Positions 10,333 through 62,667 of a stretch of DNA of 64,000 bases are shown piece by piece (position 1 is the stretch's first letter; the number at the start of each line of letters is the position of its first letter). The position numbers and the translations under genes are program-made. Source of the DNA: an uncultured Rivularia sp. (GTDB lineage: Bacteria; Cyanobacteriota; Cyanobacteriia; Cyanobacteriales; Nostocaceae); contig OY762007.1 in NCBI GenBank assembly GCA_963665115.1, positions 6,784,001 to 6,848,000 on the forward strand, written 5' to 3'. The notes beneath the pieces are model-generated. The model saw nothing but the letters and a program-made list of their open reading frames with translations, made no database searches and was not told the origin of the DNA.

Positions 10333-10447
10333 CGCCTTGGAATCAATTTCCAGGCTCAAAAACAAAGTCTGATAAATCAGACTGAGTAATGCTTTTAGTG
10401 CGTTTCAACGTACTTTGCATATCAGCCCTGAAATTAATTCCGAGGCG
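10333..10447. repeat. REP-like dyad element (two inverted arms, each with internal hairpins)
   Basis: cgccttggaatcaatttccaggct ... agccctgaaattaattccgaggcg imperfect inverted repeat. Confidence 0.7.
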
Positions 10448-14555: not shown

Positions 14556-16043
14556 ATGTATTTGACGCAAAAAAAATATCATCAGGCACCAATCACTTTT
14601 CGTCTGAAAATTCCTTATCGTGCAGGGGAAAAGAAGGGTACTTATCAAGCAAAACAGCTATTGCCGGGATGTCCGAAAATTCCGCCATCTCTGCAATTGC
14701 GAGATTACCAAAAGCAAGCTGTAAATAATTGGTTTGCGAATAATGGTAGGGGTACTTTAAAAATGGCGACTGGTAGCGGTAAAACTATCACGGCACTGGC
14801 AATTACTTGGGAATTATATAGTCAAATAAATTTGCAAGTATTGTTAGTGGTGTGCCCTTACCGTCATCTTGTCACCCAATGGGCGCGGGAATGCGAAAAG
14901 TTTGGTTTAAAGCCGATTTTAGCTTTTGAAAATGTCCGCACTTGGCAAACGCAACTTTCGGAGCAGCTTTACAATGTGCGTTCTAGTTCTCAACAGTTTC
15001 TCACAATTGTTACTACTAATTCAACGTTGATAAGTGATGGTTTCCAATCTCAATTAAAATACTTTCCTGAAAAAACTTTGATTATTGGCGATGAAGCGCA
15101 TAATTTGGGTTCGCCAAAGTTAGAAGAAAGTTTACCGCATAGTGTTGGATTAAGGTTGGGGTTATCTGCCACACCGGAAAGATATTTTGATGAGGTAGGA
15201 ACGGTGGCGGTATTTAATTATTTTGGTGCGGTTTTGCAACCGGAATTTACTTTGAGAGATGCGATTACTCAAGGTGCTTTGGTACGCTATCTTTATTATC
15301 CGATATTGATAGAATTAACTGAATCTGAAAGTCTTGCTTATGCCAAATTGACGCGGAAGATTGGGCGGGTTTTGATGTATAAGCAGCGAGAAAGTGGCGA
15401 TTTGATTAATATTGAAGATAATGAAGATATCAAATCTTTATTAATTCAGCGTGCAAGGTTGGTAAGTGCCGCTGAAAATAAATTAAATGCTTTGCGGGAA
15501 TTGATGTTAAGTCGTCGCGAAACTACTCATACATTATTTTATTGCAGCGATGGCTCTCAAGAAGCGGAAGGGCGTGCGAATTTACGTCAATTGAAGGAAG
15601 TAACTCGCATTTTAGGAGTCGAGTTGGGTTATAGAGTTAGTACCTATACGGCAGAAACTTCTTTGGTAGAGAGAGAAGCTTTAAGAAGTCAATTTGAAAG
15701 TGGAGAATTACAAGGTTTAGTTGCAATTCGCTGTCTGGATGAAGGAGTTGATATTCCAGCGATTAAAACAGCCGTGATCTTAGCAAGTTCGAGCAATCCC
15801 CGTCAATTTATCCAGCGGCGGGGAAGAGTTTTACGTCCTCATCCAGGTAAGGAACGTGCAACTATATTCGATATGATTGTACTGCCTCCAGATTTAGATC
15901 GAAAGACTTTAGAAGTGGAGCGTAATTTGTTGAGAAAGGAATTGCGGCGCTTTGTTGAGTTTGCCGATTTAGCTGACAATGCTGGTGAAGCAAGGATGAA
16001 ATTGCTGGATTTACAAAAGCGGTATGGATTGATGGATGTTTAA
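14556..16043 (+). CDS. SF2 (DEAH, type III Res-like) helicase associated with DNA phosphorothioation; PbeA-like
   Basis: LRDYQ, MATGSGKT, GDEAH, GLSATP, LDEGVDIP, FIQRRGRVLR; context next to dnd genes; no nuclease domain recognised. Confidence 0.85.
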   Translation: MYLTQKKYHQAPITFRLKIPYRAGEKKGTYQAKQLLPGCPKIPPSLQLRDYQKQAVNNWFANNGRGTLKMATGSGKTITALAITWELYSQINLQVLLVVCPYRHLVTQWARECEKFGLKPILAFENVRTWQTQLSEQLYNVRSSSQQFLTIVTTNSTLISDGFQSQLKYFPEKTLIIGDEAHNLGSPKLEESLPHSVGLRLGLSATPERYFDEVGTVAVFNYFGAVLQPEFTLRDAITQGALVRYLYYPILIELTESESLAYAKLTRKIGRVLMYKQRESGDLINIEDNEDIKSLLIQRARLVSAAENKLNALRELMLSRRETTHTLFYCSDGSQEAEGRANLRQLKEVTRILGVELGYRVSTYTAETSLVEREALRSQFESGELQGLVAIRCLDEGVDIPAIKTAVILASSSNPRQFIQRRGRVLRPHPGKERATIFDMIVLPPDLDRKTLEVERNLLRKELRRFVEFADLADNAGEARMKLLDLQKRYGLMDV

Positions 16044-16652: not shown

Positions 16653-16841
16653 ATGTTAAAAACCGTGATGAAAAAACAGCATAATATAGATGAAGTACAA
16701 CAACCAATAAAGTGCGCTTCACCAGAAGTACGGCAAATTATCGAGCAAGTATGGCATTTAGAAAAAAGTAGACTTGATAAAAAAAGTTTTGGTCATATTA
16801 ACGAAGATATTTTAGCAATCGTTAAGGAAGCTGTAAAATGA
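16653..16841 (+). CDS. 62-aa protein translationally coupled to the ATPase (PbeB-like position)
   Basis: Stop overlaps the ATPase start (ATGA at 16838-16841); helical EVRQIIEQVWHLEK...EDILAIVKEAVK. Confidence 0.75.
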   Translation: MLKTVMKKQHNIDEVQQPIKCASPEVRQIIEQVWHLEKSRLDKKSFGHINEDILAIVKEAVK

Positions 16842-18901
16842 AGCTGACTTCTATCAAGCTTTGTAACTTTCGTTCTTTTTACGGTAAAACTTGTGAAATA
16901 ACTCTTGCTGGGACAAGCTCAAACAATACTACTATTATTTACGGTAATAATGGTGCGGGTAAAACGAGTTTGCTGAATGCATTTACATGGGTATTATACG
17001 AAAAGTTTAGTGCAGCTTTTGCTTCGATTGACCAACTTGTAAATAAAAGAGCGATCGCCGAAGCGAAAATTGGGCAAGGTGTGGAATGTTGGGTAGAGTT
17101 AGCGTGGGAACACGACAGCAAACGCTATCGAGTCAAACGTCAATGTCGAGTTTACAAACATGAAAATGATATTGACGTTGGTAAAACAGAAATATATATG
17201 CAGGTAGCGGGAGATGACGGTAGATGGTATCTTCCACCGCAACGACCGGAAGAGATTATCGGACAAATTTTACCTGCTAGTTTACATCAATACTTTTTTT
17301 TCGATGGCGAAAGAATTGAAGAAATAGTTCGTTCGGATAAGAAGGCGGAAATTGCGGAAGCTACTAAAATATTTTTGGGTGTAGAGGTAATAAATCGTTC
17401 AATTCGACATTTACAAGAAGCCAAGAAAAGTTTAGAAAATGAGTTGAGAATAATCGGTGATTCGGAAATTAAAAAGTTATTGAAACAGCAGGGTAAAATT
17501 GAGCTTGAAATTGAAATAATTAGCAAACGTCAGCAAGAAATTATTAAAGAATTAGAATATCAAAATACTTTTAAAAAAGAAACTAGTAAACGTTTGCGGG
17601 AATTGAATGCGGCAAAGGATTTACAGGAAAGGCGGCAGGAATTAGAAAAACAAAAAGCGTCGCATCAAGATAATTTACGACAAACTAGAGAAACTATCAA
17701 AAAAGCCATCTCCACACGCGGCTATACAGTATTGTTACCGGAAACAACAGTACAGTTTCGAGAAATTATCGATAATTTGAAGCAGAAGGGAAAGTTAACT
17801 ACAGGGATTTCGCGAGAGTTTATTCAAGAGCTATTAAAATCAAGTAGCTGTATTTGCGGTACGAGTTTGAATGAAGATACAACTCGCGTAAATGTCGAAA
17901 CCTGGTTAGAGAAAGCAGGCTCCTCGGAAGTCGAAGAAACAGCAATTAGAATCAGCGCTCAAGTTGATGAAATTGACAAACAAGTAGCATTATTCTGGGA
18001 AGAAATTGATAAGGAACAAGCTAGAATTAGTCAGTTAAGACAGGTTATTGCTGAAATTGAAGCAGAGTTAGACAATATTGAAGAAAGATTAAGAAAAGAT
18101 CCTAGTGAAGAGATTAGAAGTTTACAAAAGCGTTTAGATAAAATTGAAGAAAAAATTACAGAATTAACTTTAGAGCAAGGTGCCAACCAGCAAAAAGTAA
18201 TTAACCTAAAAACCGAATTAGAAAGTTTAAATAAACAAATATCCAAGCAGAAATTAAACGAAGAAAAGCAGATATTAGCACAGCGTCGCATCAGCGCCAC
18301 ACAAGACGCGATCGATAGATTAACTCAAGTCAAAGTTTTGCAGGAAGAGCAATTCCGCTTGCAATTAGAAAAACGAGTGCAGGAGATATTTAGCGAAATT
18401 TCCTTTACACCTTATATTCCCACAATCAGCGAAAAATACGAATTAACGTTAATAGAAAATACTTCTGGTTTAGCAATGCCAGTTGCAGCATCTACCGGAG
18501 AAAATCAAGTTCTCAGTTTATCGTTTATTAGCAGCATTATCGATCGAGTGCGGGATTGGAGTCAAAATAAAATGCTCATGGTAGCCGATAGCAGCACGTT
18601 TCCAATTGTTATGGATTCACCTTTTGGAAGCTTAGATGTAATTTACCGAAAGCACATAGCTCAAATCATTCCGAAATTAGCAAATCAATTAATCGTATTA
18701 GTTACTAAAACGCAATGGAGGGGTGAAGTAGAAGACGAAATGTCATACCGAGTTGGTAGAGAATATGTTTTGACTTATTATTCTTCCAAACCCGATTGCG
18801 AACAAGATTTTATTGAATTAAGCGGAGACAGATATATGCTGGTAAAGCAAAGCCCAAATAATTTTGAATATAGTGAAATTGTGGAAGTTGAGAGAGAGTA
18901 A
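16838..18901 (+). CDS. Rad50/SMC-like ABC ATPase with central CxC motif; DndD paralog, PbeC-like
   Basis: NFRSF, Walker A GNNGAGKTS, YFFFDGE, long coiled coils with CICG at the apex, signature ASTGENQ, Walker B VMDSPFGSLD. Confidence 0.9.
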   Translation: MKLTSIKLCNFRSFYGKTCEITLAGTSSNNTTIIYGNNGAGKTSLLNAFTWVLYEKFSAAFASIDQLVNKRAIAEAKIGQGVECWVELAWEHDSKRYRVKRQCRVYKHENDIDVGKTEIYMQVAGDDGRWYLPPQRPEEIIGQILPASLHQYFFFDGERIEEIVRSDKKAEIAEATKIFLGVEVINRSIRHLQEAKKSLENELRIIGDSEIKKLLKQQGKIELEIEIISKRQQEIIKELEYQNTFKKETSKRLRELNAAKDLQERRQELEKQKASHQDNLRQTRETIKKAISTRGYTVLLPETTVQFREIIDNLKQKGKLTTGISREFIQELLKSSSCICGTSLNEDTTRVNVETWLEKAGSSEVEETAIRISAQVDEIDKQVALFWEEIDKEQARISQLRQVIAEIEAELDNIEERLRKDPSEEIRSLQKRLDKIEEKITELTLEQGANQQKVINLKTELESLNKQISKQKLNEEKQILAQRRISATQDAIDRLTQVKVLQEEQFRLQLEKRVQEIFSEISFTPYIPTISEKYELTLIENTSGLAMPVAASTGENQVLSLSFISSIIDRVRDWSQNKMLMVADSSTFPIVMDSPFGSLDVIYRKHIAQIIPKLANQLIVLVTKTQWRGEVEDEMSYRVGREYVLTYYSSKPDCEQDFIELSGDRYMLVKQSPNNFEYSEIVEVERE

Positions 18902-19257: not shown

Positions 19258-19728
19258 ATGGCTGAAACTGGAAGAATAAGGGTTGCAAAAGATAAGGCTG
19301 AGTTAGTACAAAGTTTAACATCTTGGAATGGTGCAACGGGACCTTTTCAAACTTTTGCTGACGTGGTTGTTTTTGCGGCTACTTTGGGTAAAAAGCACAA
19401 TCGCCGCGTACCTTTGGGAGAAATTTCTAAAAGGGAACCTTCACCAATTAAAGTCGAAACTTTTGCTTCAATGGGTTATGACTGGGTGATTAAATTGATC
19501 GGAATTACCGAAACGAAAGATATAAAAGTACTTTCGGTAACTGAGGAAGAATCTCAAACTGAACGTAATAATATTTTTGAAGAATATACGAATGGTGGTT
19601 TGGAAATATTGCAAACTGAATTGCGAGGTGCGGTAGATTATTCGGAAAGGCTGTTGTTGATGTTGAGTGCGGAAAGGTTTAAGGAAGATAAGCAGGGAGA
19701 ATTTGATTTGAGTCGGTTTTTGTCTTGA
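19258..19728 (+). CDS. DNA phosphorothioation-associated protein 4-like small protein (PbeD-like position)
   Basis: RIRVAKDKAELV, GPFQTFADVVVFAA, IFEEYTNGGLEIL; follows the ATPase. Confidence 0.8.
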   Translation: MAETGRIRVAKDKAELVQSLTSWNGATGPFQTFADVVVFAATLGKKHNRRVPLGEISKREPSPIKVETFASMGYDWVIKLIGITETKDIKVLSVTEEESQTERNNIFEEYTNGGLEILQTELRGAVDYSERLLLMLSAERFKEDKQGEFDLSRFLS

Positions 19729-19740
19729 TGATAATTAATA

Positions 19741-19797
19741 CGCCCTCACCCTCGAAGGGTGGGGCTACAATTACAAAGCCCACCTGCGTGGGCTAAA
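19741..19797 (+). repeat. Left arm of a 57-bp inverted repeat pair (partner 22022-22078)
   Basis: cgccctcaccctcgaagggtggggctacaattacaaagcccacctgcgtgggctaaa. Confidence 0.8.
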
Positions 19798-19804
19798 TCA
19801 AATT

Positions 19805-21817
19805 TTATTCGGTATCTTCAGCATCTATCTCATCTTCAACAGATACTTGTTTCGTCAACAACTCACTATAAATTTCGGGCAAACCAGCTACTAATACAGC
19901 AGAAAATCTGTCACGCACCATATCCTCTTTTTTTTGCTCGCCCATTTTTTCATAGTCTTTGCCATAAAATGTATTAGTGTCAAAACCTTTATACAATGCT
20001 TTGTAAGCATCCGTACAATTTGACCACTGGACTTTATTTACATCTGCTCTGAAAAAATTTAATAGCTTTCGTCTGGATAACATCGGATAACCATTTGCAG
20101 CGTCTATTTGGACTTTACGAGAACCAAAATACCATAAGCATAGTAAGTAAAATATTCTATCTTCTACTGTTTTCGCAACCTTAATTTTGTCATTACCAGG
20201 ATTTATCGCTACAAATGTCCACAAACGATATGGGTAATTTGCTAAATTAACATCTACCTTCAAAATACCTCGATCGTAAAGCCGATTTAGAAAATCTATA
20301 ACATTATTTATATTGCCTAAACTTTCATCTGTTCTTGTATTTTTAAATTCTATAAGTTTTCCTAAACGAACTATAGCTTTTTGAAATATAACTTTGAAAG
20401 CCCACTGGTTTTCTTTCAAAGCATTAATAGCTTTGCTATGGCTAATTATTTTTGTTTGGTGCCAATCACTATCTCTTGCATTTTCCTGCTCTTTAATCGT
20501 TCCTTTGTGTTTACTTGTCTGAGCTTGGAATTTGCCAAAAGTACCTTCAATTAAATCGTTATCGCGGGCATATTCAAGCAAGTTATTGTAAGGTTTGAAA
20601 TCCAGTAAAAGCTTAATTAACCAAGGACGAAAGTTAACTTCAAAGCCCTTTATTGCTGAACTCAGATAATTCTGTGGTAATCGAGAAAAAGGTGTTTCTG
20701 GCTCTTCATCTTCATCGCAGTAATCTTCTTGATAATAAGTGAAGAGAGAGCGTCCTTCATACTCAACTGGTTGTCCGTTTATGCCGAGTGCATCGTCAAT
20801 ACTTTTTATAAACCCTTCAATTTGCTTCTTTTCCATAGGATCGCGTGGTGGTTTCAAATCCAAAGTTGCAGAAACCAAAAGATCCAAATTTACAAGTGAA
20901 TTCAGATAGTAGGAACTATCAAATTTGACAGAATCATCTTGCCAACGTACTAAGGAAAGAGGAAGTCTATCGTCCGCATCTTCACCTGTTTTCTCTGTAA
21001 TCAGCGTTCTGACGCACTGTGCGTTAATACTTTGATCGTCAAGAATTAGCTCTCTAGCTTTATCAACTGTCTTAGCATTTTTATTCAAGTCAGTAAATAA
21101 TTCACGAGCAATTCCTCGAATGGAATAATCCGCTTCACTTTGAATATTTTGAAACCCTGCATCAGGATGAAGTAAAACAAATAAAATTGGAATCTTAGTT
21201 TGTTTTTCCGTGGTATGAAGAGTACCACCTCTAAATTTTGGATCTTCACGAAAAGTACGAAGCGCCCAAAGACGATGTTGTCCATCTACAGCTACTGGTA
21301 AAATCCGCTCCTTATCCCAACGAAGCCGCGCTTGTGTTCCAACAGAAACGAATTGAACACCACCAAAGTTAGCAATTTTAGCTTGGGGTTGGTTCCATTG
21401 TGCGTCATCAGTATCACTACCATCGTAAGGAATAGGGGGAGAATTAGTATCTGGAGAATTATCAAAGGTATCTTGAATTTTTTCGTCATCTCCCTTTGGC
21501 ATCAATACTATAGTAATAGCATTGAAAAATTTTAACTTTTTAGGATCGAGAAGATAACCTTTAACAATATCGTCTCCTACTCTCTTCTCATCAATTTCTC
21601 GTTGAAAAAGTTCTTTCAGCGACCATTTTGTATCGATAGAAGCGGGAATCTGCTCGGCAATCTTCAGTTCATCAATTGCTCGGTTAATTTCAATTAAAGA
21701 AAGAAAATAAGGAAGCGCTATACCTTCGGATAGAGTATAAGTTCCAGTTAAACCATAAAGAGGTTTATTAAAACTTGCTTTTTCTTCGTCATTCGAGAAT
21801 ATAGGCATTTTTATCAC
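19805..21817 (-). CDS. DGQHR / DndB-like domain protein, 670 aa with long C-terminal extension
   Basis: LFQREID, KFFNAITIVL, VAVDGQHRLWAL, ARELFTDLNKNAKTV; start GTG 21817 or ATG 21808. Confidence 0.88.
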   Translation of the reverse strand: MIKMPIFSNDEEKASFNKPLYGLTGTYTLSEGIALPYFLSLIEINRAIDELKIAEQIPASIDTKWSLKELFQREIDEKRVGDDIVKGYLLDPKKLKFFNAITIVLMPKGDDEKIQDTFDNSPDTNSPPIPYDGSDTDDAQWNQPQAKIANFGGVQFVSVGTQARLRWDKERILPVAVDGQHRLWALRTFREDPKFRGGTLHTTEKQTKIPILFVLLHPDAGFQNIQSEADYSIRGIARELFTDLNKNAKTVDKARELILDDQSINAQCVRTLITEKTGEDADDRLPLSLVRWQDDSVKFDSSYYLNSLVNLDLLVSATLDLKPPRDPMEKKQIEGFIKSIDDALGINGQPVEYEGRSLFTYYQEDYCDEDEEPETPFSRLPQNYLSSAIKGFEVNFRPWLIKLLLDFKPYNNLLEYARDNDLIEGTFGKFQAQTSKHKGTIKEQENARDSDWHQTKIISHSKAINALKENQWAFKVIFQKAIVRLGKLIEFKNTRTDESLGNINNVIDFLNRLYDRGILKVDVNLANYPYRLWTFVAINPGNDKIKVAKTVEDRIFYLLCLWYFGSRKVQIDAANGYPMLSRRKLLNFFRADVNKVQWSNCTDAYKALYKGFDTNTFYGKDYEKMGEQKKEDMVRDRFSAVLVAGLPEIYSELLTKQVSVEDEIDAEDTE

Positions 21818-22021
21818 CCCGATAATAATTTATGAAAAGTAATATTTCTCATAAAATATGAAAAACATTAGTTTGTATAATATGCGATAAGATTATGATT
21901 TTAAATCAGTGAAACCCACAATAACAAAAGGATTAAATACGAAATTTACCTTTATCTTTCAAAAAGCTGCGAACAATAATGAAGTACTTTTATTTTACGT
22001 ATGGTAAATCATTAGGCATTT

Positions 22022-22078
22022 TTTAGTCCACGCAGGTGGACTTCGTTTCTGTAGCCCCAGACTTCTAGTCTGAGGGTG
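22022..22078 (-). repeat. Right arm of the 57-bp inverted repeat pair
   Basis: Revcomp caccctcagactagaagtctggggctacagaaacgaagtccacctgcgtggactaaa aligns without gaps to 19741-19797. Confidence 0.8.
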
Positions 22079-22115: not shown

Positions 22116-23390
22116 ATGAATTCATCAAATAAATTAACTCCTCCAAAAAGGCGATCGCACCCTACTATCCAATTAGATGTTAACTTTAACGATTTACACA
22201 CCTGCTTCGGCGCTTTCTTCCGTACCATCGATCGCCAGCAATCTTTAAATGGGATTAAATCTTTTTGGCATACCGATAAAGAAGTTTTAGTCACCTTATC
22301 TGTAAGAACTAGTTTAGATTTATTGTTACAATCATTAAATCTACCTCCCGAATCGGAAGTATTAATGAGCGGCATTAATATCCGAGAAATGGCAGAAATT
22401 ATCCGTAGTCATGGATTAATTCCGGTTCCTATTGATATTTCCATAGATACTGTTGCGCCTAATTTAGAAATATTAGAGCAGTTAACTTCTCCTCGAAGCA
22501 AAGTATTATTAATCGCGCATTTATTTGGTGTAATTGTTCCTTTACAGCCTTACGTTGATTTCTGTAAAAAACATCATATTCTACTTGTTGAAGACTGCGC
22601 TCAAGCTTTTGCAGGAAAACAATATTTTGGACATCCTCAAGCTGATGTGAGTCTATTTAGCTTTGGTGCGATCAAATCTTGTACTGCTTTGGGTGGAGCA
22701 GTAGCATTAATTAAAGATAAACAATTAGCTCAAAAAATGGCAGCTATCGAGCAAAAATATTTCCAAAAAAGCGAGTTTTGGTATTTAAAAAGAGTATTTA
22801 AGTTCTATTGGTTAAAACTTCTTTCGCTGCCGAGCTTGTACGATCAAATCCTTAATTTAATGCGGTTGTTAAATTTGGATGTCGAATCAACTATAAAAAA
22901 AGCAACCCTCGGTTTCCCTACAGGTGATATACTCACAAAAATTCGCTATCGTAATCCCAAACATCTACTGTGGTTTTTAAACTATAGATTGAGTCATTGC
23001 GATGATTTTCAAGAGCGTATTCAACGAGGCAAAGATTTTTTAAAAATGCTACCAGATAATCTTACTATCCCTGGTAACAAAGCTGAATATAATTCCTTTT
23101 GGGTAATGCCAATTTTGATAGATTCTCCTGATGCTATGGCAAAAATACTGCGTGCGGAGGGTTTTGATAGTGCCAGAGGAAACCGCAGTTTATTTGCTAT
23201 TGACGCAAAGCCAAATACGCCCAATCATCTTTTACCAATTCAAAGTCAATATTCAATGGCACATATTTTATGCGTACCATTTTCGCCTTTATTAACGGTA
23301 CAGGAATCTGAATATTTAGCGCAATTAATTACGGTAAATATCGATTGTGAATTTGAACAAACAGAAAATATAGTAATTCAAAATAATTAG
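22116..23390 (+). CDS. DegT/DnrJ/EryC1/StrS family PLP-dependent aminotransferase
   Basis: PVPIDI, IAHLFG, LVEDCAQAF, FSFGAIKS (PLP lysine), GGA. Confidence 0.88.
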   Translation: MNSSNKLTPPKRRSHPTIQLDVNFNDLHTCFGAFFRTIDRQQSLNGIKSFWHTDKEVLVTLSVRTSLDLLLQSLNLPPESEVLMSGINIREMAEIIRSHGLIPVPIDISIDTVAPNLEILEQLTSPRSKVLLIAHLFGVIVPLQPYVDFCKKHHILLVEDCAQAFAGKQYFGHPQADVSLFSFGAIKSCTALGGAVALIKDKQLAQKMAAIEQKYFQKSEFWYLKRVFKFYWLKLLSLPSLYDQILNLMRLLNLDVESTIKKATLGFPTGDILTKIRYRNPKHLLWFLNYRLSHCDDFQERIQRGKDFLKMLPDNLTIPGNKAEYNSFWVMPILIDSPDAMAKILRAEGFDSARGNRSLFAIDAKPNTPNHLLPIQSQYSMAHILCVPFSPLLTVQESEYLAQLITVNIDCEFEQTENIVIQNN

Positions 23391-23410: not shown

Positions 23411-23633
23411 CTCGTTACTAGCCTCCAGGCTGGGAACGCATTCTCCGAGGCTCTGCCTCTCGTTAAATCCTTGCTTAGAGGCGGAGCCTCACTTCGGGGA
23501 TTCCTAGTCAAAGACTAGGAAACCAGGTAGAAATTCCGAGGCTAATAGCTAAAGTCTACTAAAGTAGACTGAAAAATATCTAGTCGTCTTTAGACGACTT
23601 TCGCTATTAGCTGGGGGTTTGCAACCCCCAGTG
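23411..23633. repeat. Two adjacent multi-hairpin dispersed repeats
   Basis: 23411-23526 (gaggctctgcctc...gaggcggagcctc dyad) and 23531-23633 (gctaatagctaaagtc...gactttcgctattagc dyad). Confidence 0.75.
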
Positions 23634-24249: not shown

Positions 24250-25830
24250 TCACAAAACCCCCGGCAATCCCACCTGTTTCGGCTCTACAAACTTACCTTT
24301 AAAATCCACAGTTTGATCTTCAATAGTTCTAGCTTTCGCTAAATCGTTCCTTAATTCTGCACGCTCCATCTTGTCTTTAACCCCACCCAAAATATAAACG
24401 AGTAACCGCGTTGCTAATTCTTTCCCGGCAACTAATACCCGCTTGCGATTCGCATCGTATAAAACCCCATACCAAAGAGATTTAGGAAAGTCCATTCCAC
24501 TAAAACCGCCTTTACTATCAAATTTTCTTAACTTTTCAAAAATATCTTCTATAGAAAAACCTTTTTCAAATATTAAGATACCTAAAGCCTTAGCTAATGC
24601 CATTTGTCCGACTGGACGAAATAAAATATTACCTTCTCCCTCGTCTTTTTCAAAACTAAACCTGCGGAACATTGGCGTGTCTTCGTGTTCTAAAAGTTTA
24701 TAGCTTGGTAAAGTTGCTAAATTGTCAAATAGCTCGTAAAAATCTTCTATCGCTGATTCTAATTCTTCATCCTCCGGGCGCATGGGAATTAAACCTTTGT
24801 CTAAGGGCTTCCAATGAGGATACTTGTGTTCTAAATAACGTTCTGACATCTCTTTTAAAGCTTGCAAAGTTGTCAAAACTGTAGACTTTGCTGCAACTGT
24901 GGCACTATTCCAATTTACGCGAGATTTCCGATCTTTACGCTGTTCTAAAAGTGGATGGCTAACGGCTATCTTTCTGGCAACAATAGAAAAACCATCGTCT
25001 TCATTTAACTGTGCTAACTGTCCTTTACTCAAGGGTACAGCCATTAAGTTAACGTGTACAAAAATTGACCTTACCCTGCGTCTTGCTTCCTCGCGGGTTT
25101 CTCCTTGGGCAACTGCACAAATAAATTCTATACCGATTTTTTCTTGGGGTAATTGTTGTAAATATTCGGCTTCAACTCCGTATTTTTCTGTTAAATTATC
25201 AATCGTAATAAAATTGTTAGCAGCGGCTTTATCTTTCTTGTAGCGCGGTAACTTACCAGTTTTGAGTATCTCCATCAAACCCTGTACCGCCATTAATCTA
25301 TGTTGTCCATCTAATGCATAAATAGTTACATTTTCTTCTCTAATATCAAGCAAGCCAAATTGACCGTTTTCATCTAAACTAGTAAATTCCGTAGTAGATT
25401 TTTTGGCTCGTCCTTTATTGTCCCACTCAGATGCTTTGGAATCATTTACCCAAGGCTGACTAATTACAGCTAATACGGGAGGAAATTTATGATTTTTACG
25501 TGCTGCTAAATACTGAACTAAAGGTGCTTGTCGCGACCAATCTAAGGGGCGTTGCTGAATATCATCTATACTTTCTGCGTCAATTTCGATATTATCAGTA
25601 TCGGGATTGTACTTACTTCGCAATAATGGTAACAAAGATGCAAAGCGAACCTGACTAGCAAACCATTCTAAAGTTACCGAACCAACATAAGCTTGAGTCC
25701 CGCCCATTTCTGTTTTTTGGACTAATAGCTGTTGATTTTCACCAAGATATTTGGTTAATAAAGTAGAAAATTTCTTTTTATCTGGACTGCTAATAACTGA
25801 GAAAGGTTCAGATGCACTCTTTTTCATCAC
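24250..25830 (-). CDS. DGQHR domain protein (DndB-like), 526 aa, divergent from dndC
   Basis: QQRPLDWSR, HKFPPVL, YALDGQHRLMAV, RSIFVHVN, QLNEDD. Confidence 0.9.
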   Translation of the reverse strand: MMKKSASEPFSVISSPDKKKFSTLLTKYLGENQQLLVQKTEMGGTQAYVGSVTLEWFASQVRFASLLPLLRSKYNPDTDNIEIDAESIDDIQQRPLDWSRQAPLVQYLAARKNHKFPPVLAVISQPWVNDSKASEWDNKGRAKKSTTEFTSLDENGQFGLLDIREENVTIYALDGQHRLMAVQGLMEILKTGKLPRYKKDKAAANNFITIDNLTEKYGVEAEYLQQLPQEKIGIEFICAVAQGETREEARRRVRSIFVHVNLMAVPLSKGQLAQLNEDDGFSIVARKIAVSHPLLEQRKDRKSRVNWNSATVAAKSTVLTTLQALKEMSERYLEHKYPHWKPLDKGLIPMRPEDEELESAIEDFYELFDNLATLPSYKLLEHEDTPMFRRFSFEKDEGEGNILFRPVGQMALAKALGILIFEKGFSIEDIFEKLRKFDSKGGFSGMDFPKSLWYGVLYDANRKRVLVAGKELATRLLVYILGGVKDKMERAELRNDLAKARTIEDQTVDFKGKFVEPKQVGLPGVL

Positions 25831-26038: not shown

Positions 26039-27632
26039 ATGACTCTTGCCCAACAATCAGAAAAAAGCCAGCCAGCACCCGTTACGGTAATTGATAAAAT
26101 TCCTCTTATTACCAAAGAAATCCAGGAATTATATTTACTAGACGAAATACCTTGGATTATTGGCGTGTCTTGGGGTAAAGACTCCAGCACAATTTTGCAA
26201 CTTATTTGGAATGCGATCGCAACTCTACCACCAAAGAAACGCGGTAAAACAATTCACGTAATTACTACGGATACGCTGGTAGAAAATCCTATCGTTTCGG
26301 CATGGGTTCGCAATTCGATGAAGTTGCTGGGATCTGCTGCGAAAGAAAAAGGAATGCCCATCGAGCCTCATTTGCTGTTGCCAGTAATTCAAGATACATT
26401 TTGGGTGAATTTAATCGGCAGGGGTTATCCGGCTCCCCGCAATCAGTTTCGCTGGTGTACGCCGCGTTTGAAAATTAATCCAGCTAACCAGTTTATTCGC
26501 GAAATGGTTAGAGCTAACGGTGAAACAATTTTGGTTTTGGGTACTCGCAAAGCCGAAAGTTCGAGACGAGCCGCCACAATGCAAAAGCATCAAGCGGGTA
26601 GAATCCGCGAGCGTTTGAGTCCGAATGCCAGTTTACCAAACTCTTTGATTTATACTCCTATCGAAGATTGGAGCAACAACGATGTGTGGATTTACCTCAA
26701 TCAATGTGAAAATCCTTGGGGTGGTAATAATAAAGATTTATTTTCGATGTATCGCGGTGCGACGGCAGATAACGAATGTCCTTTAGTTGTCGATACTTCT
26801 ACCCCCAGTTGCGGCGATTCGCGCTTTGGTTGTTGGGTTTGTACGATGGTGACAAAAGATAAATCAATGGAAGCGATGATTCAGAATGATGAAGAAAAAG
26901 AATGGATGCAGCCGCTTTTAGATATTCGTAACGAGCTAGATATTCAAGACGACCATGATAAGCGCGATTTTCGCAGAATTTGGGGTAAAGTACAGCTTTT
27001 CGAGCGTAATAAAGATGGTAAAACATCAGTGCAGCCAGTACCAGGGTCCCTATACAAAATATTGGCGCGAACATTGGTTAACGAGGGTATTGTCAGCGCA
27101 AACCCAAGCTCGTCAAACTGCGCCGGAAGATATGCGCGATATTACCTTAATTACCCCAGATGAACTGAGTGAAATCAGGCGCATTTGGTTAGAAGAAAAA
27201 CACGAATTTGACGATAGTTTACCCCGGATTTATCAAGAAGTGACAGGAGAATCTTTTGTAGACTCCCGCCCCGGTGCGGGTTACAGCTTATTAGGCAGCG
27301 ATGAGTGGGCAGTATTAGAAGAAATCTGCGACAACGACGCGATGCATTTAGAATTGATGGCGAAACTGTTAGATACAGAACGGCAATATCGTAAAAAATC
27401 GCGTCGCGTCGGAATCTACGATGCCTTAGAAAAATGTTTTGAAACAAGCTCCCGAACTCAAGAAGACGCAATTAAAAACGCCCACTTTAAACGTGACTTA
27501 AAAGATGCTGCTGGCAAAGGTGATATTGACAAAGTAAAACAGTTGACTTTAGGCGACGTTACGGCAGAAAAAGCAACAGAAAAACCAGAAAAATCTAAAA
27601 CTTGGGCAGATAAAAAATTTAAAAAACAATGA
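26039..27632 (+). CDS. dndC: DNA phosphorothioation sulfurtransferase DndC (apparent +1 frameshift at 27044-27046)
   Basis: PAPS-reductase-like SWGKDS, DTLVENP, GRGYPAP, RWCT, LGTRKAES, CPLVVD, SCGDSRFGCWVC; removing one G gives VPGPYTKYWREHWL. Confidence 0.93.
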
Positions 27633-27836
27633 ACAATTATCAATTATCAATTATCAATTATCAATGAATAATGAAAAATATATGCTGCAATGGTTTGGTG
27701 AGGCAATCCGATAAATTATTAAGGAGTTTAATTATATGCTTTTAATAAATGATAACTATTGACTTATAACACTATAAAGTTAAAGATAAAATCGAATTGA
27801 CTGATAATTGATAATTGATAATTGATAATTGATTAC

Positions 27837-29825
27837 ATGATATTTCTCGAACTTGTTTTAGAAAACTTTGGTCCTTATTATGGTCGTCAAGTCATAAATT
27901 TGCAGCCAAATAATGATGATAATCCCCACCCGATTATTCTTGTCGGTGGAATGAATGGTGGAGGAAAAACAACTTTTATGGATGCGATTCGTCTGGCACT
28001 TTACGGACATCGCGCCCAATGTTCGACTCGCGGTAATTTGAGTTATCATGACTTTCTTAATCAATGCGTAAATACCCATAAATCACCTACAGAGAAAACT
28101 CGCATTGAGCTAGCTTTTGAACATATTGAAAACGATAAACCCGTTAGATATCGTGTAGTTAGAACTTGGGAAAATAATCCTAAAGATGGTAAAGATCATT
28201 TAGGAATTTTAGATATTCGTGAAAACGATGAATGGCTGGATGAGGGATTAGTAAATATTTGGGATGAATATATTGAAAATTTATTACCTTTAGGAATTTC
28301 CAACTTATTTTTATTTGATGGCGAACAGGTAAAAGAACTTGCCGAACAAGAAGAACCACCAACTATTGTAATCGAAGCAATTCGCGCTCTTTTAGGTTTA
28401 GAATTAGCAGAACGTTTGACAGCTGATTTGGAAATATTAGTAAATCGCAAACGTAAAGAACTTGTAGATACAAAAGAACTGGCAAACTTAGAAGAAATAG
28501 AAAAGCGACTCAAAGATTTACAGGAAGAATACGAAGAAACCAAAAATGTAGAAGCGCAGGAATTAGAATTTCTACAGCAAGCAGAAAAAAATCAACAGGA
28601 AGCCTTTGATAAATTTGTCAGCGAAGGCGGAAAAATAGCTTCAGAAAGCAGTCAGTTAGAACAGCAAAAAATAGCAAAAGCTAAAGAAGCAGAAAACACT
28701 CGTCAGGAAATGACTGAATTAGCGGCGGGCGTTTTACCGTTGAAATTAATCGAACCATTACTAAATCAAGCTCAAGAAAGAGGTGAAGTCGAATCCTTAG
28801 TTAAGCAACAGCAAATAGCGCGAGATATATTGCTCGAACGAGATAAACGCTTGCTTAACTTGATTAATAAAATAGATATAGCAGCAGATCAATTTTCTCA
28901 AATAAAAACCTTTTTAGACGAAGACATACAAACTATAAATACATCCTTAAAAGAATCACCTTGGTTATTAGCAGATGCAGAAAGTTTGAGTAAATTAGGC
29001 AATATTCTCTACTACTTGCAAACTACCAGCAATACCGCCAAACAGCAATTAAAACAATTAAAAAATAAAGACGAAGAAATAATTACTTTAGAAAGACAAA
29101 TACAAGCAGCAGCAGCACCAGAAGATTATCAAAAGTTAGTAGAATCAGTTAAAGAAGCCCAAAATAAAGTTACCGATATCAAAAGTAATTGCGAAACAGT
29201 AACTCGTCGCTTAATAGAACTACAAACAGAAATTGATAAATTAAAAAAAGATTTAACAGAATATAGCGTTCAAACCATCGAACATAAAAGCAAAGAAAAC
29301 ATCATTAATGCATCCACAAGAGTACAAGAAACCCTCAAACTATTTCGCGAACGACTTACCTTAAGAAAACTTAACAAATTAGAAAACGAAGTCACAGAAT
29401 GCTTCCGCTACCTGCTCCACAAATCCGATTTAGTACATCGCATCATCATCGACACCAACACCTTCAGCCTTTCCCTATACGACTCAAACTCAAAACAAGT
29501 TGACAAACATCGTTTATCAGCAGGAGAAAAACAACTATTGGCGATCGCCTTCCTTTGGGCATTAGCAAGAGTATCCGGGCATCAATTACCCGTTGCCATC
29601 GACACCCCACTAGGAAGATTAGACTCATCTCACCGCAGCAACTTAGTAGAAAGATACTTCCCCTCAGCCTCCCATCAAGTAATACTACTTTCCACCGACA
29701 CAGAAATCGCCGAAAAAGAAGTAAAAACCCTCCGCAAGAATGAGGCGATCGCCCGCGAATACGTCCTCAAATACTCTCAGAAAACTCGTCAAACTACAGT
29801 AGAATCTGGGTATTTTTGGAAATAG
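27837..29825 (+). CDS. dndD: DNA sulfur modification ATPase DndD
   Basis: ENFGPY, GGMNGGGKTT, LFLFDGE, coiled coil, LSAGEKQLLA, IDTPLGRLDSSHR, SHQVILLSTDTEI; between dndC and dndE. Confidence 0.95.
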   Translation: MIFLELVLENFGPYYGRQVINLQPNNDDNPHPIILVGGMNGGGKTTFMDAIRLALYGHRAQCSTRGNLSYHDFLNQCVNTHKSPTEKTRIELAFEHIENDKPVRYRVVRTWENNPKDGKDHLGILDIRENDEWLDEGLVNIWDEYIENLLPLGISNLFLFDGEQVKELAEQEEPPTIVIEAIRALLGLELAERLTADLEILVNRKRKELVDTKELANLEEIEKRLKDLQEEYEETKNVEAQELEFLQQAEKNQQEAFDKFVSEGGKIASESSQLEQQKIAKAKEAENTRQEMTELAAGVLPLKLIEPLLNQAQERGEVESLVKQQQIARDILLERDKRLLNLINKIDIAADQFSQIKTFLDEDIQTINTSLKESPWLLADAESLSKLGNILYYLQTTSNTAKQQLKQLKNKDEEIITLERQIQAAAAPEDYQKLVESVKEAQNKVTDIKSNCETVTRRLIELQTEIDKLKKDLTEYSVQTIEHKSKENIINASTRVQETLKLFRERLTLRKLNKLENEVTECFRYLLHKSDLVHRIIIDTNTFSLSLYDSNSKQVDKHRLSAGEKQLLAIAFLWALARVSGHQLPVAIDTPLGRLDSSHRSNLVERYFPSASHQVILLSTDTEIAEKEVKTLRKNEAIAREYVLKYSQKTRQTTVESGYFWK

Positions 29826-30011
29826 GGGATTGGGCATTGGAGAATAGTTAGGAGTAGCAAGTCGCAAGTAGTGAGTAGCAAGTAGCAAGTAGCAAGTAGC
29901 AAGTAGTGAGTAGCGGGTTATGAACTAATTTCTCTTTGTCTCCCCATCCCCCATGCCCAATGCCCAATCCCCAATGCCCAATCCCCCATGCCCAATCCCC
30001 AACTTTAAATC

Positions 30012-30398
30012 ATGGAATCACCAATCGAACGCATCCGCTTATCCCAGACAGGCAAAGATCAACTGTTAAAACTCAGGCGCTTTACCAAAATCGATCAGTG
30101 GAATATCCTGTGTCGCTGGGGGTTTTGTCGTTCCCTCGCAGAAAAAAGTATTCCTTCTCCCGTACCGATACCCCAAGATAGTAACGTCGAATTAAACTGG
30201 CGAATATTTGGCGGTGAAATGTCCGATATGCTGCTTTTAGCCCTCAAACAACGCTGTTATAACGATGGTTTGGGAACCGATAAAGAAACCCTCGTAACCC
30301 AATTTCGGCTACATCTACATCGCGGCATCGGCTATTTAGCAGGAGATCCAAATATTAAGAAAATTGAAGATTTGATTGAATTAGCCACTGAGAATTAG
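30012..30398 (+). CDS. dndE: DNA sulfur modification protein DndE
   Basis: RIRLSQTGKDQLLKLRRFTKIDQWNILCRWGFCRSL...FRLHLHRGIGYL. Confidence 0.93.
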   Translation: MESPIERIRLSQTGKDQLLKLRRFTKIDQWNILCRWGFCRSLAEKSIPSPVPIPQDSNVELNWRIFGGEMSDMLLLALKQRCYNDGLGTDKETLVTQFRLHLHRGIGYLAGDPNIKKIEDLIELATEN

Positions 30399-30413
30399 GT
30401 AGGAGATGGGGAA

Positions 30414-30646
30414 ATTATTAAAGTAGTGAGTAGTGAGTAGTGAGTAGTAAGTAGTAAGTAGCGAGTAAAAATAGACGGGCAGAAGTACCGACATTTATGA
30501 CAATAATAAAAAAGTGATTTACTCTCTACTCCCTACTTCCTACTTCCTACTTCCTACTCCCTACTTCCTACTCCCTACTTCCTACTCCCTACTCCCTACT
30601 CATAACTCCTAACTATTTCCAATCCCCAATGCCCAATCCCCTACTC
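30414..30646 (+). repeat. Composite dispersed element: heptamer arms plus conserved 60-bp core (copy 1)
   Basis: Core GTAAAAATAGACGGGCAGAAGTACCGACATTTATGACAATAATAAAAAAGTGATTTACTC at 30465-30524. Confidence 0.9.
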
Positions 30647-30680: not shown

Positions 30681-32165
30681 TTGCCAATTGGATTTGTAGA
30701 GATGCCCGAAGTTTTAGCAATTGAACGCCACAGAGCAGCAATTTACCGCACAGACTTATCTCGTCCGACGAAATTGGCATTGGAATTTGAAATTATTAAT
30801 AAGAAGACTACGTTTTTTGATTATGGATGCGGACATGGCGGTGATGTCAAAAGATTGGCAGAGATCAATGTAAAAAGTGCGGGTTGGGACCCTTATTACA
30901 ATCCCGATGCCCGTTTGAAGTCTGCCGATGTAGTCAATCTCGGTTATATTCTTAACGTTATTGAAGATACCGAAGAACGGCTTGAGAGCCTTCAAAATGC
31001 GTGGAAACTCGCGAAGAAAGTATTAATAGTAGCCGCTCAAGTATTAGTAAGTACCATTAGTAGCAAAAATCAATTAGCTTATGGCGATGGTGTATTAACT
31101 CGTCGCAATACTTTTCAGAAATACTACGAACAGGGAGAACTTAAAAAATATATTGATAGCACTTTAGAAGTTGATGCCGTACCTGTAGCGTTAGGCATAT
31201 ACTTTGTGTTTCGCGACGAACAAGAAAAAGAAAATTTTCGCGTCGAGTGCTATCGTTCCCGAGTAATTGCGCCGAGAATTATTCTTGCGACTAAAAAATA
31301 TGAAGACTGCAAACAGGAATTAGCTCCATTAATTGAATTCTATACAAAACGCGGCAGATTACCAGTTGAAGGAGAATTAGAACCAGAAGCTTTATCAAAA
31401 ATACTGGTTGAATTTACCAGCATTCGCCGCGCCTTCAAAGTAATATTGCAAGCAACAGACGAAGCCGAATGGGATGCGATCGCCTACCGTCGTTCATTAG
31501 ACATCCAAGTTTATCTTGCCTTGGTGCATTTTGAAGAAGAACGTCCCAGATTCTCAGAGCTACCCAAGGAAATCCAATACGACATCAAAGCCTTATTCGG
31601 TTCATATCGGGATGCTTGCGAAGTAGCTGACGAAAAGTTATTTAGTTTAGGCGAACCTAAAATAATTCAAAAAGCCTGCTACAAAGGTAAAGTTGGTAAG
31701 CTTACACCAAGCGCTCTTTACGTCCACATGAAAGCTTTGTGGGAACTAGAACCATTGCTACGAATCTACGAAGGCTGCGCCAGTCGTGTATTTGGACGGC
31801 CAGAAGAAACAACACTGATCAAACTTCACATCAAAGAACCAAAAATATCTTACCTGTATTACCCCGATTTCGATACCGATGCTCATCCAGCCTTAAAAGC
31901 AAGCATAGTAATCGACTTACAAACATTCAAAATCACTCGCGGCGACTACTCCACCAGAGAAAATCCGCCTATACTGCACCGAAAAGAAACATTTGTAACA
32001 CCCAAATATCCACTCTACAAACAATTTGCCCAACTCACCCAACTTGAAGAAGAAGCAGGATTATATGAAAATCCCCGCGAAATCGGAACCCTTAAAGGCT
32101 GGCAAAAATGTTTAGAAGAACATGATGTAGAAATTAAAGAACATCAAGTTAGAAAAAGGGAATAG
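30681..32165 (+). CDS. DNA phosphorothioation-associated putative SAM-dependent methyltransferase
   Basis: ERHRAAI, FFDYGCGHG (motif I), GWDPYY, VVNLGYILNVIE, TFQKYY, YPDFDTDAHPAL, NPPILHRKETFV; follows dndE; start TTG 30681 or ATG 30702. Confidence 0.88.
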   Translation: MPIGFVEMPEVLAIERHRAAIYRTDLSRPTKLALEFEIINKKTTFFDYGCGHGGDVKRLAEINVKSAGWDPYYNPDARLKSADVVNLGYILNVIEDTEERLESLQNAWKLAKKVLIVAAQVLVSTISSKNQLAYGDGVLTRRNTFQKYYEQGELKKYIDSTLEVDAVPVALGIYFVFRDEQEKENFRVECYRSRVIAPRIILATKKYEDCKQELAPLIEFYTKRGRLPVEGELEPEALSKILVEFTSIRRAFKVILQATDEAEWDAIAYRRSLDIQVYLALVHFEEERPRFSELPKEIQYDIKALFGSYRDACEVADEKLFSLGEPKIIQKACYKGKVGKLTPSALYVHMKALWELEPLLRIYEGCASRVFGRPEETTLIKLHIKEPKISYLYYPDFDTDAHPALKASIVIDLQTFKITRGDYSTRENPPILHRKETFVTPKYPLYKQFAQLTQLEEEAGLYENPREIGTLKGWQKCLEEHDVEIKEHQVRKRE

Positions 32166-32546
32166 GGGATTGGGCATTGGAAATAGTTAGGAGTAGGAAG
32201 TAGGGAGTAGGGAGTTATGAGTAGGAAGTAGGGAGTAGGGAGTAGGGAGTAGGAAGTAGGGAGTAGAGAGTAGGAAGTAGGAAGTAGGGAGTAGGAAGTA
32301 GGGAGTAGGGAGTAGGAAGTAGGGAGTAGGAAGTAGGGAGTAGGAAGTAGGGAGTAGGAAGTAGGAAGTAGGGAGTAGGGAGTAGGGAGTAGGGAGTAGG
32401 AAGTAGGGAGTAGAGAGTAAATCACTTTTTTATTATTGTCATAAATGTCGGTACTTCTGCTCGTCTATTTTTACTCGCTACTTGTTACTCATTACTCATT
32501 ACTCACTACTCACTACTCACTACTCACTACTCACTACTTTAATAAT
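32161..32546 (-). repeat. Composite dispersed element, copy 2 (inverted)
   Basis: Core at 32415-32474 is the reverse complement of copy 1 with one mismatch; longer heptamer arm. Confidence 0.9.
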
Positions 32547-61386: not shown

Positions 61387-61395
61387 GGGGGGACA

Positions 61396-61634
61396 AGGGG
61401 ACATTATTAAAGTAGTGAGTAGTGAGTAGTGAGTAATAAGTAATGAGTAACAAGTAAAAATAGACGGGCAGAAGTACCGACATTTATGACAATAATAAAA
61501 AAGTGATTTACTCCCTACTCTCTACTTCCTACTCCCAACTCCCAACTCCCAACTCCCAACTCCCTACTCTCTACTTCCTACTTCCTACTTCCTACTTCCA
61601 ACTCCCTACTCCCTACTCCCTACTCCCTACTCCC
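61396..61634 (+). repeat. Composite dispersed element, copy 3
   Basis: Core at 61454-61513 identical to 30465-30524; same heptamer arms with different copy numbers. Confidence 0.9.
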
Positions 61635-61650
61635 TTAAGAGGTAATACAT

Positions 61651-62667
61651 ATCGAACAGCAAAAAAATATCATAGCGATTGGTACTTCGGCAGGTGGAGT
61701 AGAAGCGCTTTCTTTTTTAGTTAGTCATTTGCCGGAGGATTTGAATGCTGCTGTAATGATAGTTTTACACGTGCCTACTCACGCTACCAGCGTTTTGCCG
61801 AATATTCTTAAACGTGCCGGAAAATTACCAACCTGTCATCCTCGAGATAATCAAGAAATTTCTCCCGGTTGTATTTATATTGCTCCGCCAGACTATCATT
61901 TATTAGTCAAGCCGGGATATCTTAGCTTGGTGCGAGGGCCAAGAGAAAACAATCATCGTCCTGCAATCGATCCTTTGTTTCGTACTGCCGCACGGGCTTA
62001 CGGAAAGCGAGTAGTTGGAGTAGTGCTTACGGGGGTACTTGATGATGGTACTGCTGGATTACAGGCGATAAAAATGCGCGGTGGCGTAGCAATTGTGCAA
62101 AGCCTGGATGATGCTGTTTATCCGGGAATGCCGCGCAGTGCAATTGAAAATGTCGAAAATATTGATTATATTCTGCCTTTGTCGGAGATTCCTGCCGTTT
62201 TAGTAGGACTAGCTAATACGCCTATTGAAGCCGAAGCCGAAAATCCCGTTTCTCACAGGATGGAAATTGAAACTGATTTGGTGGATATGGATATGCAAAT
62301 TTTAAATAGCGACGATAGGGCGGGTAAACCTTCAACCTTTGGCTGTCCCGACTGCGGCGGTACTTTGTGGGAATTGGAACAAGCTAATTTGTTACGTTTT
62401 AGATGTCGCATCGGTCATGCTTACTCTTTGGAAAGCTTGCTAGCAAAGCAGTCTGACGCTTTAGAAGATGCATTATGGTTTGCTTTGCGGGCTTTGGAAG
62501 AAAAAGCTTCTTTATCAAGACGTATGGCAAAAAGAATGCGCGATCGCAATCAGAATTTAGCCGCACAACGATTGCAAGAACAGGCAGAAGACGCTGTTGC
62601 TCGCGCTAATGTGATCCGAGAAACTTTACTTATAGGAAAGACAATTCTCCTAGATAAACCAAAATGA
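61651..62667 (+). CDS. cheB: CheB-type methylesterase with C-terminal CPDC..CRIGH extension; probable non-canonical (ATC) start
   Basis: Frame open upstream of the ORF-track TTG and includes catalytic IIAIGTSAGG; VLHVP, RPAIDPLF, LTGVLDDG. Confidence 0.85.
   Translation: MEQQKNIIAIGTSAGGVEALSFLVSHLPEDLNAAVMIVLHVPTHATSVLPNILKRAGKLPTCHPRDNQEISPGCIYIAPPDYHLLVKPGYLSLVRGPRENNHRPAIDPLFRTAARAYGKRVVGVVLTGVLDDGTAGLQAIKMRGGVAIVQSLDDAVYPGMPRSAIENVENIDYILPLSEIPAVLVGLANTPIEAEAENPVSHRMEIETDLVDMDMQILNSDDRAGKPSTFGCPDCGGTLWELEQANLLRFRCRIGHAYSLESLLAKQSDALEDALWFALRALEEKASLSRRMAKRMRDRNQNLAAQRLQEQAEDAVARANVIRETLLIGKTILLDKPK

Follow-up and report, generated by a model that had tools for sequence, protein, structure and literature searches.

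Inverted two-hairpin repeat arms around a variable gene slot in the Pbe/Dnd locus of a Rivularia genome

A gene enclosed between the two arms of an inverted repeat raises the question of whether the repeat captured the gene or came to stand around it by other means. Such an arrangement occurs in the 64,000-nucleotide stretch analysed here (the window; G000:C1:6784001-6848000), which belongs to the 8.69-Mb single-contig genome (G000) of an uncultured Rivularia sp. A gene encoding a long DGQHR (DndB-like) protein lies there between two arms resembling repetitive extragenic palindromes (REP). The pair belongs to an anti-phage locus of the phosphorothioate type, with the Pbe/CxC module and dnd4 on its left, and dndB-dndCDE together with a dnd-associated methyltransferase on its right (Table 1). 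An earlier note on this DNA proposed that the gene had been inserted into, or mobilised by, the arm pair. The explanation favoured here, to which we give somewhat better than an even chance, is that Y1 transposases spread arm doublets, that the inner spacer of a doublet takes insertions and deletions, and that strains trade the contents of the resulting slots by homologous recombination.

Different genes between orthologous arms

The left arm and the reverse complement of the right arm align without gaps, with 45 of 57 positions identical, and the same two hairpins are predicted from both. On the strand of the left arm the order is outer hairpin, CTAC (GTAG on the opposite strand), linker, inner hairpin and terminal TA, so that the REP hallmark GTAG stands directly 5' of the outer hairpin on the reverse strand of both arms. 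All stem pairs except the outermost are kept in 94-104 of 106 genome copies, and the pair types are swapped at several stem positions (pair 9-19 is CG in 56 copies and GC in 47). The ungapped inverted arms with covarying stems described in the earlier note are thereby borne out, as is their REP-like character, given that a cognate Y1 transposase family exists (see below). No target-site duplication adjoins the arms; the sole 8-mer common to both outer flanks also occurs upstream of degT in the arm-free relative G005.

The cargo of the slot differs among relatives. In G003 orthologues of both arms surround the defence gene Shedu, the enclosed DNA being wholly different from that of G000. The left arm, a DUF1877 gene and the right arm follow dnd4 in G019, a deleted DUF1877 and the right arm do so in G016, and in G022 the left arm is followed by AIPR. 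These four cargoes behind the left arm (DGQHR in G000, Shedu in G003, DUF1877 in G019 and AIPR in G022) part no more than about 5 bases from the terminal TA. The right arm recurs in G003, in G016 and in a run X8 contig, all without the DGQHR gene at the site; in the X8 contig dnd4 is joined to the right arm via about 265 other letters. Arms of the sister family B surround an AIPR remnant in G009 and form a closed doublet after dnd4 in G013 and G018. Sites with adjacent arms and no cargo thus exist, though of family B and not of family A, to which both arms in the window belong. G005 carries a family-B doublet followed by DGQHR and degT without a right arm, and G007 has a collapsed hairpin followed by the same arm-free DGQHR-degT junction. 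A contig of run X5 leads from DGQHR to degT via 106 letters, and G020 has neither cargo nor arm at the slot.

The enclosed DNA is a mosaic, since next to the right arm it ends in the tail of a DUF1877 gene (tblastn E 7e-6), which is also common to G016. The arms had been described as enclosing one gene and its upstream region; the gene is there, and the remnant lies inside the pair as well. Its position beside the right arm implies at least two events at the slot. The segment 19769-22074 forms one 2306-bp contig in runs X1-X3, without other letters, and no listed contig joint removes or flips it, so that the excision or inversion envisaged for it found no support in the contigs, which cannot show rare variants. 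Joints 19797-22024 in X6 and X7, whose short side comprises just 20 letters, were taken as closed doublets of other loci. No RNA dataset was listed as holding the segment, and the search for plasmid carriage matched one record, by an arm only.

The stop codon of the DGQHR gene does lie 7 bp from the left arm, as previously described; the 670-codon open reading frame (ORF) is also present, although the likely start is the ATG at 21808, after a ribosome-binding-like GGTGAT, which gives 667 amino acids (aa), the length also of a 99% database homologue. Full-length orthologues occur in 7 of 81 genomes and in 3 of 27 within the genus. Neighbourhoods were read for the best 45 of 54 orthologue loci, the 9 weakest being left out (31 cyanobacterial, 14 other). 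A dnd or pbe gene lies within 6 kb in all 31 cyanobacterial loci, and an arm lies within 500 bp in a single one (L304). Just upstream, 24 of these 31 carry a GIY-YIG gene of about 202 aa (e.g. L075:3688-4296), which forms a conserved two-gene unit with the long DGQHR gene. The 14 non-cyanobacterial loci have dnd/pbe genes in 10 cases and the GIY-YIG gene in 8, with the unit placed inside pbe operons. This partner was found neither in G000 (best E 0.017) nor at the G005 and G007 loci.

Against G005 the DGQHR gene is 97.7% identical while six neighbours are at 91-94%, and against G007 it is 87% identical while six neighbours are at 92-97%. Identities so discordant with those of the neighbours are what allele exchange would produce. 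Both relatives carry the gene (G005 with a 99% identical protein, G007 with 87%) without the right arm. The DGQHR gene has long been part of the dnd locus and its history is discordant; it likely arrived by ordinary recombination, not carried in by the repeats. Insertion into, or mobilisation by, the arm pair is not supported, given a dnd or pbe neighbour at every cyanobacterial locus and a nearby arm at one.

As to its product, the DGQHR motif (D178-R182) is invariant in 56 sequences, while TIGR03187 scored 28.4 against a cut-off of 58.85. A search of the Atlas with homologue P0045 returned DndB/DGQHR clusters only, and PADLOC has no model for the long gene. The structure model has a mean predicted local distance difference test (pLDDT) score of 82.5; it gave no Foldseek match at E 0.001, and the protein had no sequence match in PDB. 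ParB/Srx-type chains occupy ranks 1-6 in the structural comparison, with weak scores (Z 5.3-6.5, below 8; root mean square deviation 3.2-4.7 over 78-174 aligned residues). By comparison with described Pbe-Dnd systems (PMC10853773), the protein would hydrolyse nucleotides as a ParB-type accessory of Pbe/Dnd, either an effector or a regulator, and would normally be paired with the GIY-YIG nuclease. Since the nuclease partner is lost, the gene may be only partly functional here.

Arm census, cognate transposases and breakpoints

Two profile models recovered 247 arms in G000, 143 of family A and 104 of family B; within the window, the two around the DGQHR gene are the only ones. Neither model matched at 10333-10447 or 23531-23633, so that the likeness of these two elements to the arms, pointed out earlier, extends to their layout and not to their sequence family. 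Clusters within 100 bp number 54, of which 50 are inward doublets with spacers mostly of 1-20 bp, and the closed doublet is accordingly the common form of the repeat. The remaining 137 arms are single. Neighbouring singles up to 3 kb apart are inward in 9 cases, direct in 11 and outward in none, compared with 1.5 inward pairs expected by uniform placement. As this null ignores clustering in intergenic space, the orientation test (9 inward vs 0 outward, p 0.004) carries more weight. Inward pairing is thus in excess of uniform chance. Four of the 9 inward pairs exceed 1 kb and contain whole ORFs, and the pair enclosing the DGQHR gene is one of several such pairs in G000. When three other inward pairs were followed through 26 genomes of the genus, each proved to lie at a variable slot; in one of them the right arm stands beyond a conserved gene and only the left arm marks the slot edge.

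The inner hairpins (19772-19795 and 22024-22047) resemble Rfam CRISPR-DR28 (RF01356) at 27.2-31.9 bits. Their identity as CRISPR repeats was rejected, with scores under the gathering cut-off of 35 and dispersed copies; the Rfam family might itself derive from these repeats. Short structured inserts of about 20-55 bp break the inner hairpin of some arms (the left arm of G003, L063; the G005 doublet, L062), and appear to be smaller mobile repeats that target the arm family.

A search for the enzyme behind the arms, which the earlier note had framed as one for a RAYT (REP-associated tyrosine transposase) or other Y1 transposase, gave ten PF01797 matches in G000. One of these, a gene of 140 aa at 2059700-2060122, has family-B arms on its flanks. 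It scores 77.4 with NF033573 (IS200/IS605; cut-off 55) and 29.9 bits with NF047646 (cut-off 80), which assigns it to the IS200 type and not to the RAYT (class 2) clade. Also, it carries the Y---Q--HH signature of TnpA-Y1 subclass 1.2, found in 28 of 29 rows of a first set of relatives (one row partial; L112 left out) and in 20 of 20 of a second. A Y1 enzyme with cognate arms was therefore found; a family-A-type Y1 gene was not found in G000. Four other Y1/RAYT-like genes of this genome (G000:C1 near 786445, 4654900, 2099682 and 2547746) each have a distinct flanking repeat type of their own.

Relatives of the arm-flanked gene occur in 73 of 121 genomes, with one match in G000, in keeping with low copy number. 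At each of the 30 best loci a scoring arm lies no more than 700 bp away. Family-A doublets flank the Y1 genes of G003, G007, G014, G006 and G039, the first four of which form one clade (support 100/99). Of 20 further Y1 loci, 19 belong to a more distant clade, and in 18 of these the arms match the 10333 or 23531 elements; the remaining locus has family-A doublets. All the elements of this layout accordingly belong to the subclass-1.2 enzyme group. One lineage is associated with the defence operon itself. Among 26 wide loci, partly chosen for a nearby Y1 gene, 11 have the family-B Y1 gene between dndC and dndD, and in nine of these it has inward arms on both sides (L120, L121, L122 and L154-L159). 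Four more loci of this type occur in the orthologue set (L314, L318, L319 and L331). Ten Y1 rows, including the nine arm-flanked ones, form one clade (95/89), and in G013 a closed doublet occupies the dndC-dndD position in place of the gene.

Breaks in homology next to arms were assessed by comparing G003 and G007 with G000 at 102 distinct loci, which cover part of the arms of the first two genomes. At the 61 single-orientation loci homology broke on the inner side only in 23, on the outer side only in 5, on both in 7 and on neither in 26 (p 0.0009), and in G003 alone the counts were 15 inner-only vs 4 outer-only (p 0.019). For doublets, 14 of 82 flanks showed a break. At 300-800 bp from the arm, singles gave 19 inner vs 3 outer breaks and doublets 5 vs 4. 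The inner ends of arms are therefore likely to act as rearrangement boundaries.

Explanations for the exchange of slot contents

In the favoured explanation, a Y1 transposase would have spread arm doublets, one of which, between the convergent genes dnd4 and dndB, would have been split by insertions at its inner ends. Strains would then have exchanged slot contents through homologous recombination, with dnd4, degT, dndB and the 50-57 bp arms as anchors, and the DGQHR gene would have come by host recombination and deletion, with the inner end of an arm as one likely breakpoint. Several observations weigh against this account. G001, G008, G010, G011 and G017 have other cargo at the slot and no scoring arm, so that arms are not required for its variation. 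The closed doublet at the slot in G013 and G018 is of family B, and an exact empty allele of the family-A pair was consequently not seen. The inner-side asymmetry of breaks is inflated by the outer ends of singles lying nearer to ORFs (median 113 vs 272 bp for inner ends); singles are by definition doublets already disturbed inside (PMC3116915), and G003 and G007 are not independent, some sites being common to both. Finally, joints made by an enzyme would account just as well for so sharp a left breakpoint.

This last point leads to a reading that we regard as unlikely, in which a subclass-1.2 Y1 enzyme acts on single-stranded DNA, cutting and rejoining it at the inner ends, so that genes are taken up, lost and traded by arm pairs in the manner of an integron. 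The position of the Y1 gene between inward arms in the dnd operon, with a closed doublet there in G013, would fit it, and so would the switch of cargo within some 5 bases of the terminal TA and the finding that the inner stem is followed by an A in 73% of 152 arms. The cut sites known so far are CT or CA (PMC8266576). A second slot shows a series of genes each followed by a right arm in some relatives, the genes being without arms in others. In vitro, linker sites are recombined by E. coli TnpA-REP, for which a role in gene sequestration has been proposed (PMC3333891). Carried further, domesticated subclass-1.2 enzymes, of which one lineage is lodged in the dnd operon, would bring in, release and swap defence and accessory genes such as Shedu, AIPR and DGQHR at fixed slots of the chromosome. 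This would be a form of cyanobacterial gene shuffling so far unrecognised, analogous to integrons and run by a single-strand HuH enzyme, and we hold it doubtful. On the other side, no arm-plus-gene unit was found at two loci: of the 23 inner-broken flanks, 3 had a G000 match starting near the arm, and none of these matches was located next to an arm. Nor does the DGQHR gene ever leave the dnd cluster in the 31 cyanobacterial orthologue loci, the family-A enzyme was not found in G000, and the right junction falls inside the DUF1877 remnant, not at the arm. A bioRxiv note dealing with TnpA-REP and lanthipeptide genes withdrew its causal claim (10.1101/2020.03.09.984088), which advises caution in the present case.

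It is quite improbable, in our estimate, that the arms are passive, each having landed or decayed independently in two intergenic gaps of a variable defence hot spot, with their inward arrangement incidental. The sheer number of arms in G000 speaks for this. Also, many close arm pairs enclose ORFs that we take to be housekeeping genes, arms of different families stand at the slot in different strains, and the slot varies without arms. Incidental pairing is hard to reconcile with the absence of outward single pairs, with the inner-side excess of breaks (23 vs 5; 19 vs 3), or with arms that are orthologous in G000 and G003 around wholly different DNA. Least probable by far is a one-step insertion of the DGQHR gene into a closed doublet, or its movement as an arm-gene-arm cassette, despite the closeness of the stop codon to the left arm and the closed doublets at the site in G013 and G018. 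Cassette capture of this kind is already largely refuted by the DUF1877 remnant inside the pair, the arm-free DGQHR-degT junction in G005, G007 and the X5 contig, the 30 of 31 orthologue loci without a nearby arm and the want of a target duplication next to the outer ends. A mobile cassette or non-autonomous transposon was rejected as well, the same ends and cargo not being found at unrelated loci (31 of 31 cyanobacterial orthologue loci lie in dnd clusters).

The surrounding locus and known systems

The helicase of the Pbe/CxC module, an ORF of 495 aa, matches the PbeA profile at 241-681 of 682 only, and the N-terminal HKD nuclease part of PbeA is absent from it. One may speculate that the variable slot supplies effectors in place of this nuclease domain. 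The left anchor, dnd4, was matched in 73 of 81 genomes. The frameshift in dndC (27044; 23520 was flagged alongside) consists of one extra base, which X1 and G003 have and which the contigs of runs X2, X3 and X8 lack at full depth; an error of long-read assembly is its likely cause. Heptamers form long tandem arrays, in both orientations, at 639-879, 29829-30614, 32125-32463 and 61362-61654. Such repeats are associated with filamentous cyanobacteria, and along with the named homologues they point to an organism of that kind.

Table 1. Coordinates in the window of the arms, the enclosed DNA and the neighbouring features
Feature	Position	Strand	Basis or remark
Closed doublet, further two-hairpin family	10333..10447	.	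matches arms of second Y1 clade
Superfamily 2 (SF2) helicase of CxC/Pbe module	14556..16043	+	TIGR04095 677 bits, cut-off 600
62-aa small ORF overlapping ATPase start	16653..16841	+	likely PbeB-type, labelled by position (PMC10853773)
PbeC / CxC-type ABC ATPase	16838..18901	+	PADLOC PbeC 1137 bits
dnd-associated protein 4 (dnd4), conserved left slot anchor	19258..19728	+	TIGR04062 187 bits
Left arm, family A	19741..19797	+	same position and flank in G003, G019, G022
DGQHR / DndB-like gene	19805..21817	-	PF14072 31 bits, cut-off 29.1; putative ParB/Srx-like N-terminal domain, helical C-terminal region
3' remnant of DUF1877 gene, earlier slot occupant	21955..22007	+	83% nucleotide identity to G019 DUF1877 end
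Right arm, family A	22022..22078	-	orthologous arm before degT in G003, G016, run X8
DegT-family aminotransferase, frequent but optional occupant of wider slot	22116..23390	+	PF01041; some relatives without it
Closed doublet, other two-hairpin family	23531..23633	.	matches arms of second subclass-1.2 Y1 clade
dndB-like DGQHR gene, conserved right anchor of wider slot	24250..25830	-	TIGR03187 196 bits
dndC (frameshift near 27044), dndD, dndE	26039..30398	+	domain matches, relatives, contigs

REP doublets, split dimers and Pbe-Dnd tandems (PMC10853773) are already known. A literature search by arm sequence and topic met no description of the arm family or of a link to dnd, though an earlier catalogue entry is possible. 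What is new, as far as that search reaches, is that subclass 1.2 has cognate arms with two hairpins, that arms bound defence slots whose cargo is swapped, and that an arm-flanked Y1 gene lies inside dnd operons. Repeat families can now be assigned to a transposase subclass published without any, so that enzyme and substrate become testable together. Also, strain-level evidence on whether REP doublets capture or exchange genes comes from the differing defence cargo of orthologous arms and from a bias towards inner ends that can be measured. Should the enzyme drive the swaps, cyanobacteria would have a new route for the turnover of defence genes; should it not, the arms keep their use as markers of defence slots that vary.

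The locus resembles the tandems of PbeABCD and DndBCDE, in which a helicase, a small protein, a CxC ATPase and a DndE-like gene lie beside dndBCDE, likewise with accessory nucleases and ParB-family DndB proteins (PMC10853773). It departs from them in its helicase without HKD nuclease and in an accessory slot bounded by repeat arms, and the pair of GIY-YIG and long DGQHR genes was not met in the available part of that account. Like the REPtron, BIME and REPIN systems (TnpA-REP, RAYT), the arms show GTAG in front of a hairpin and occur in hundreds of extragenic copies, with inverted doublets whose linkers vary and with a low-copy Y1 gene set within its own repeats (PMC3333891, PMC3116915); capture of flanking genes by REP systems has been proposed as well (PMC3333891). 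Unlike in the REPtron, the arms here have two hairpins, the enzyme scores as IS200 type and not as a RAYT, the doublets have GTAG inside, and arms bound whole variable gene slots.

Closer in layout are the TIRtrons and TIRYTs, Y1 genes whose long inverted ends are double palindromes, a GTAG unit joined to another stem-loop; dimers that inserted DNA has split are on record for TIRtrons and for the cyanobacterial GTAG-12/15/16 families (PMC3733652). The TIRtron cases there involve RAYT-like enzymes, Proteobacteria and Acidobacteria, and a GGGGWSAS motif, which is absent from the present arms, reading GGGGCTAC. One of the GTAG-12/15/16 families may be identical with that of these arms (PMC3733652). 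The enzyme agrees with TnpA-Y1 subclass 1.2 in its DH[IV]H, WQ and Y---Q--HH motifs, its length of about 140 aa, its low copy number and its cyanobacterial distribution (PMC6006769). In that work the subclass is entered as 'REP: no' and generally without terminal structures, and six arm motifs searched in its REP table matched only two unrelated rows. In contrast to this entry, cognate arms accompany the enzymes studied here at 30 of 30 best and 19 of 20 further loci.

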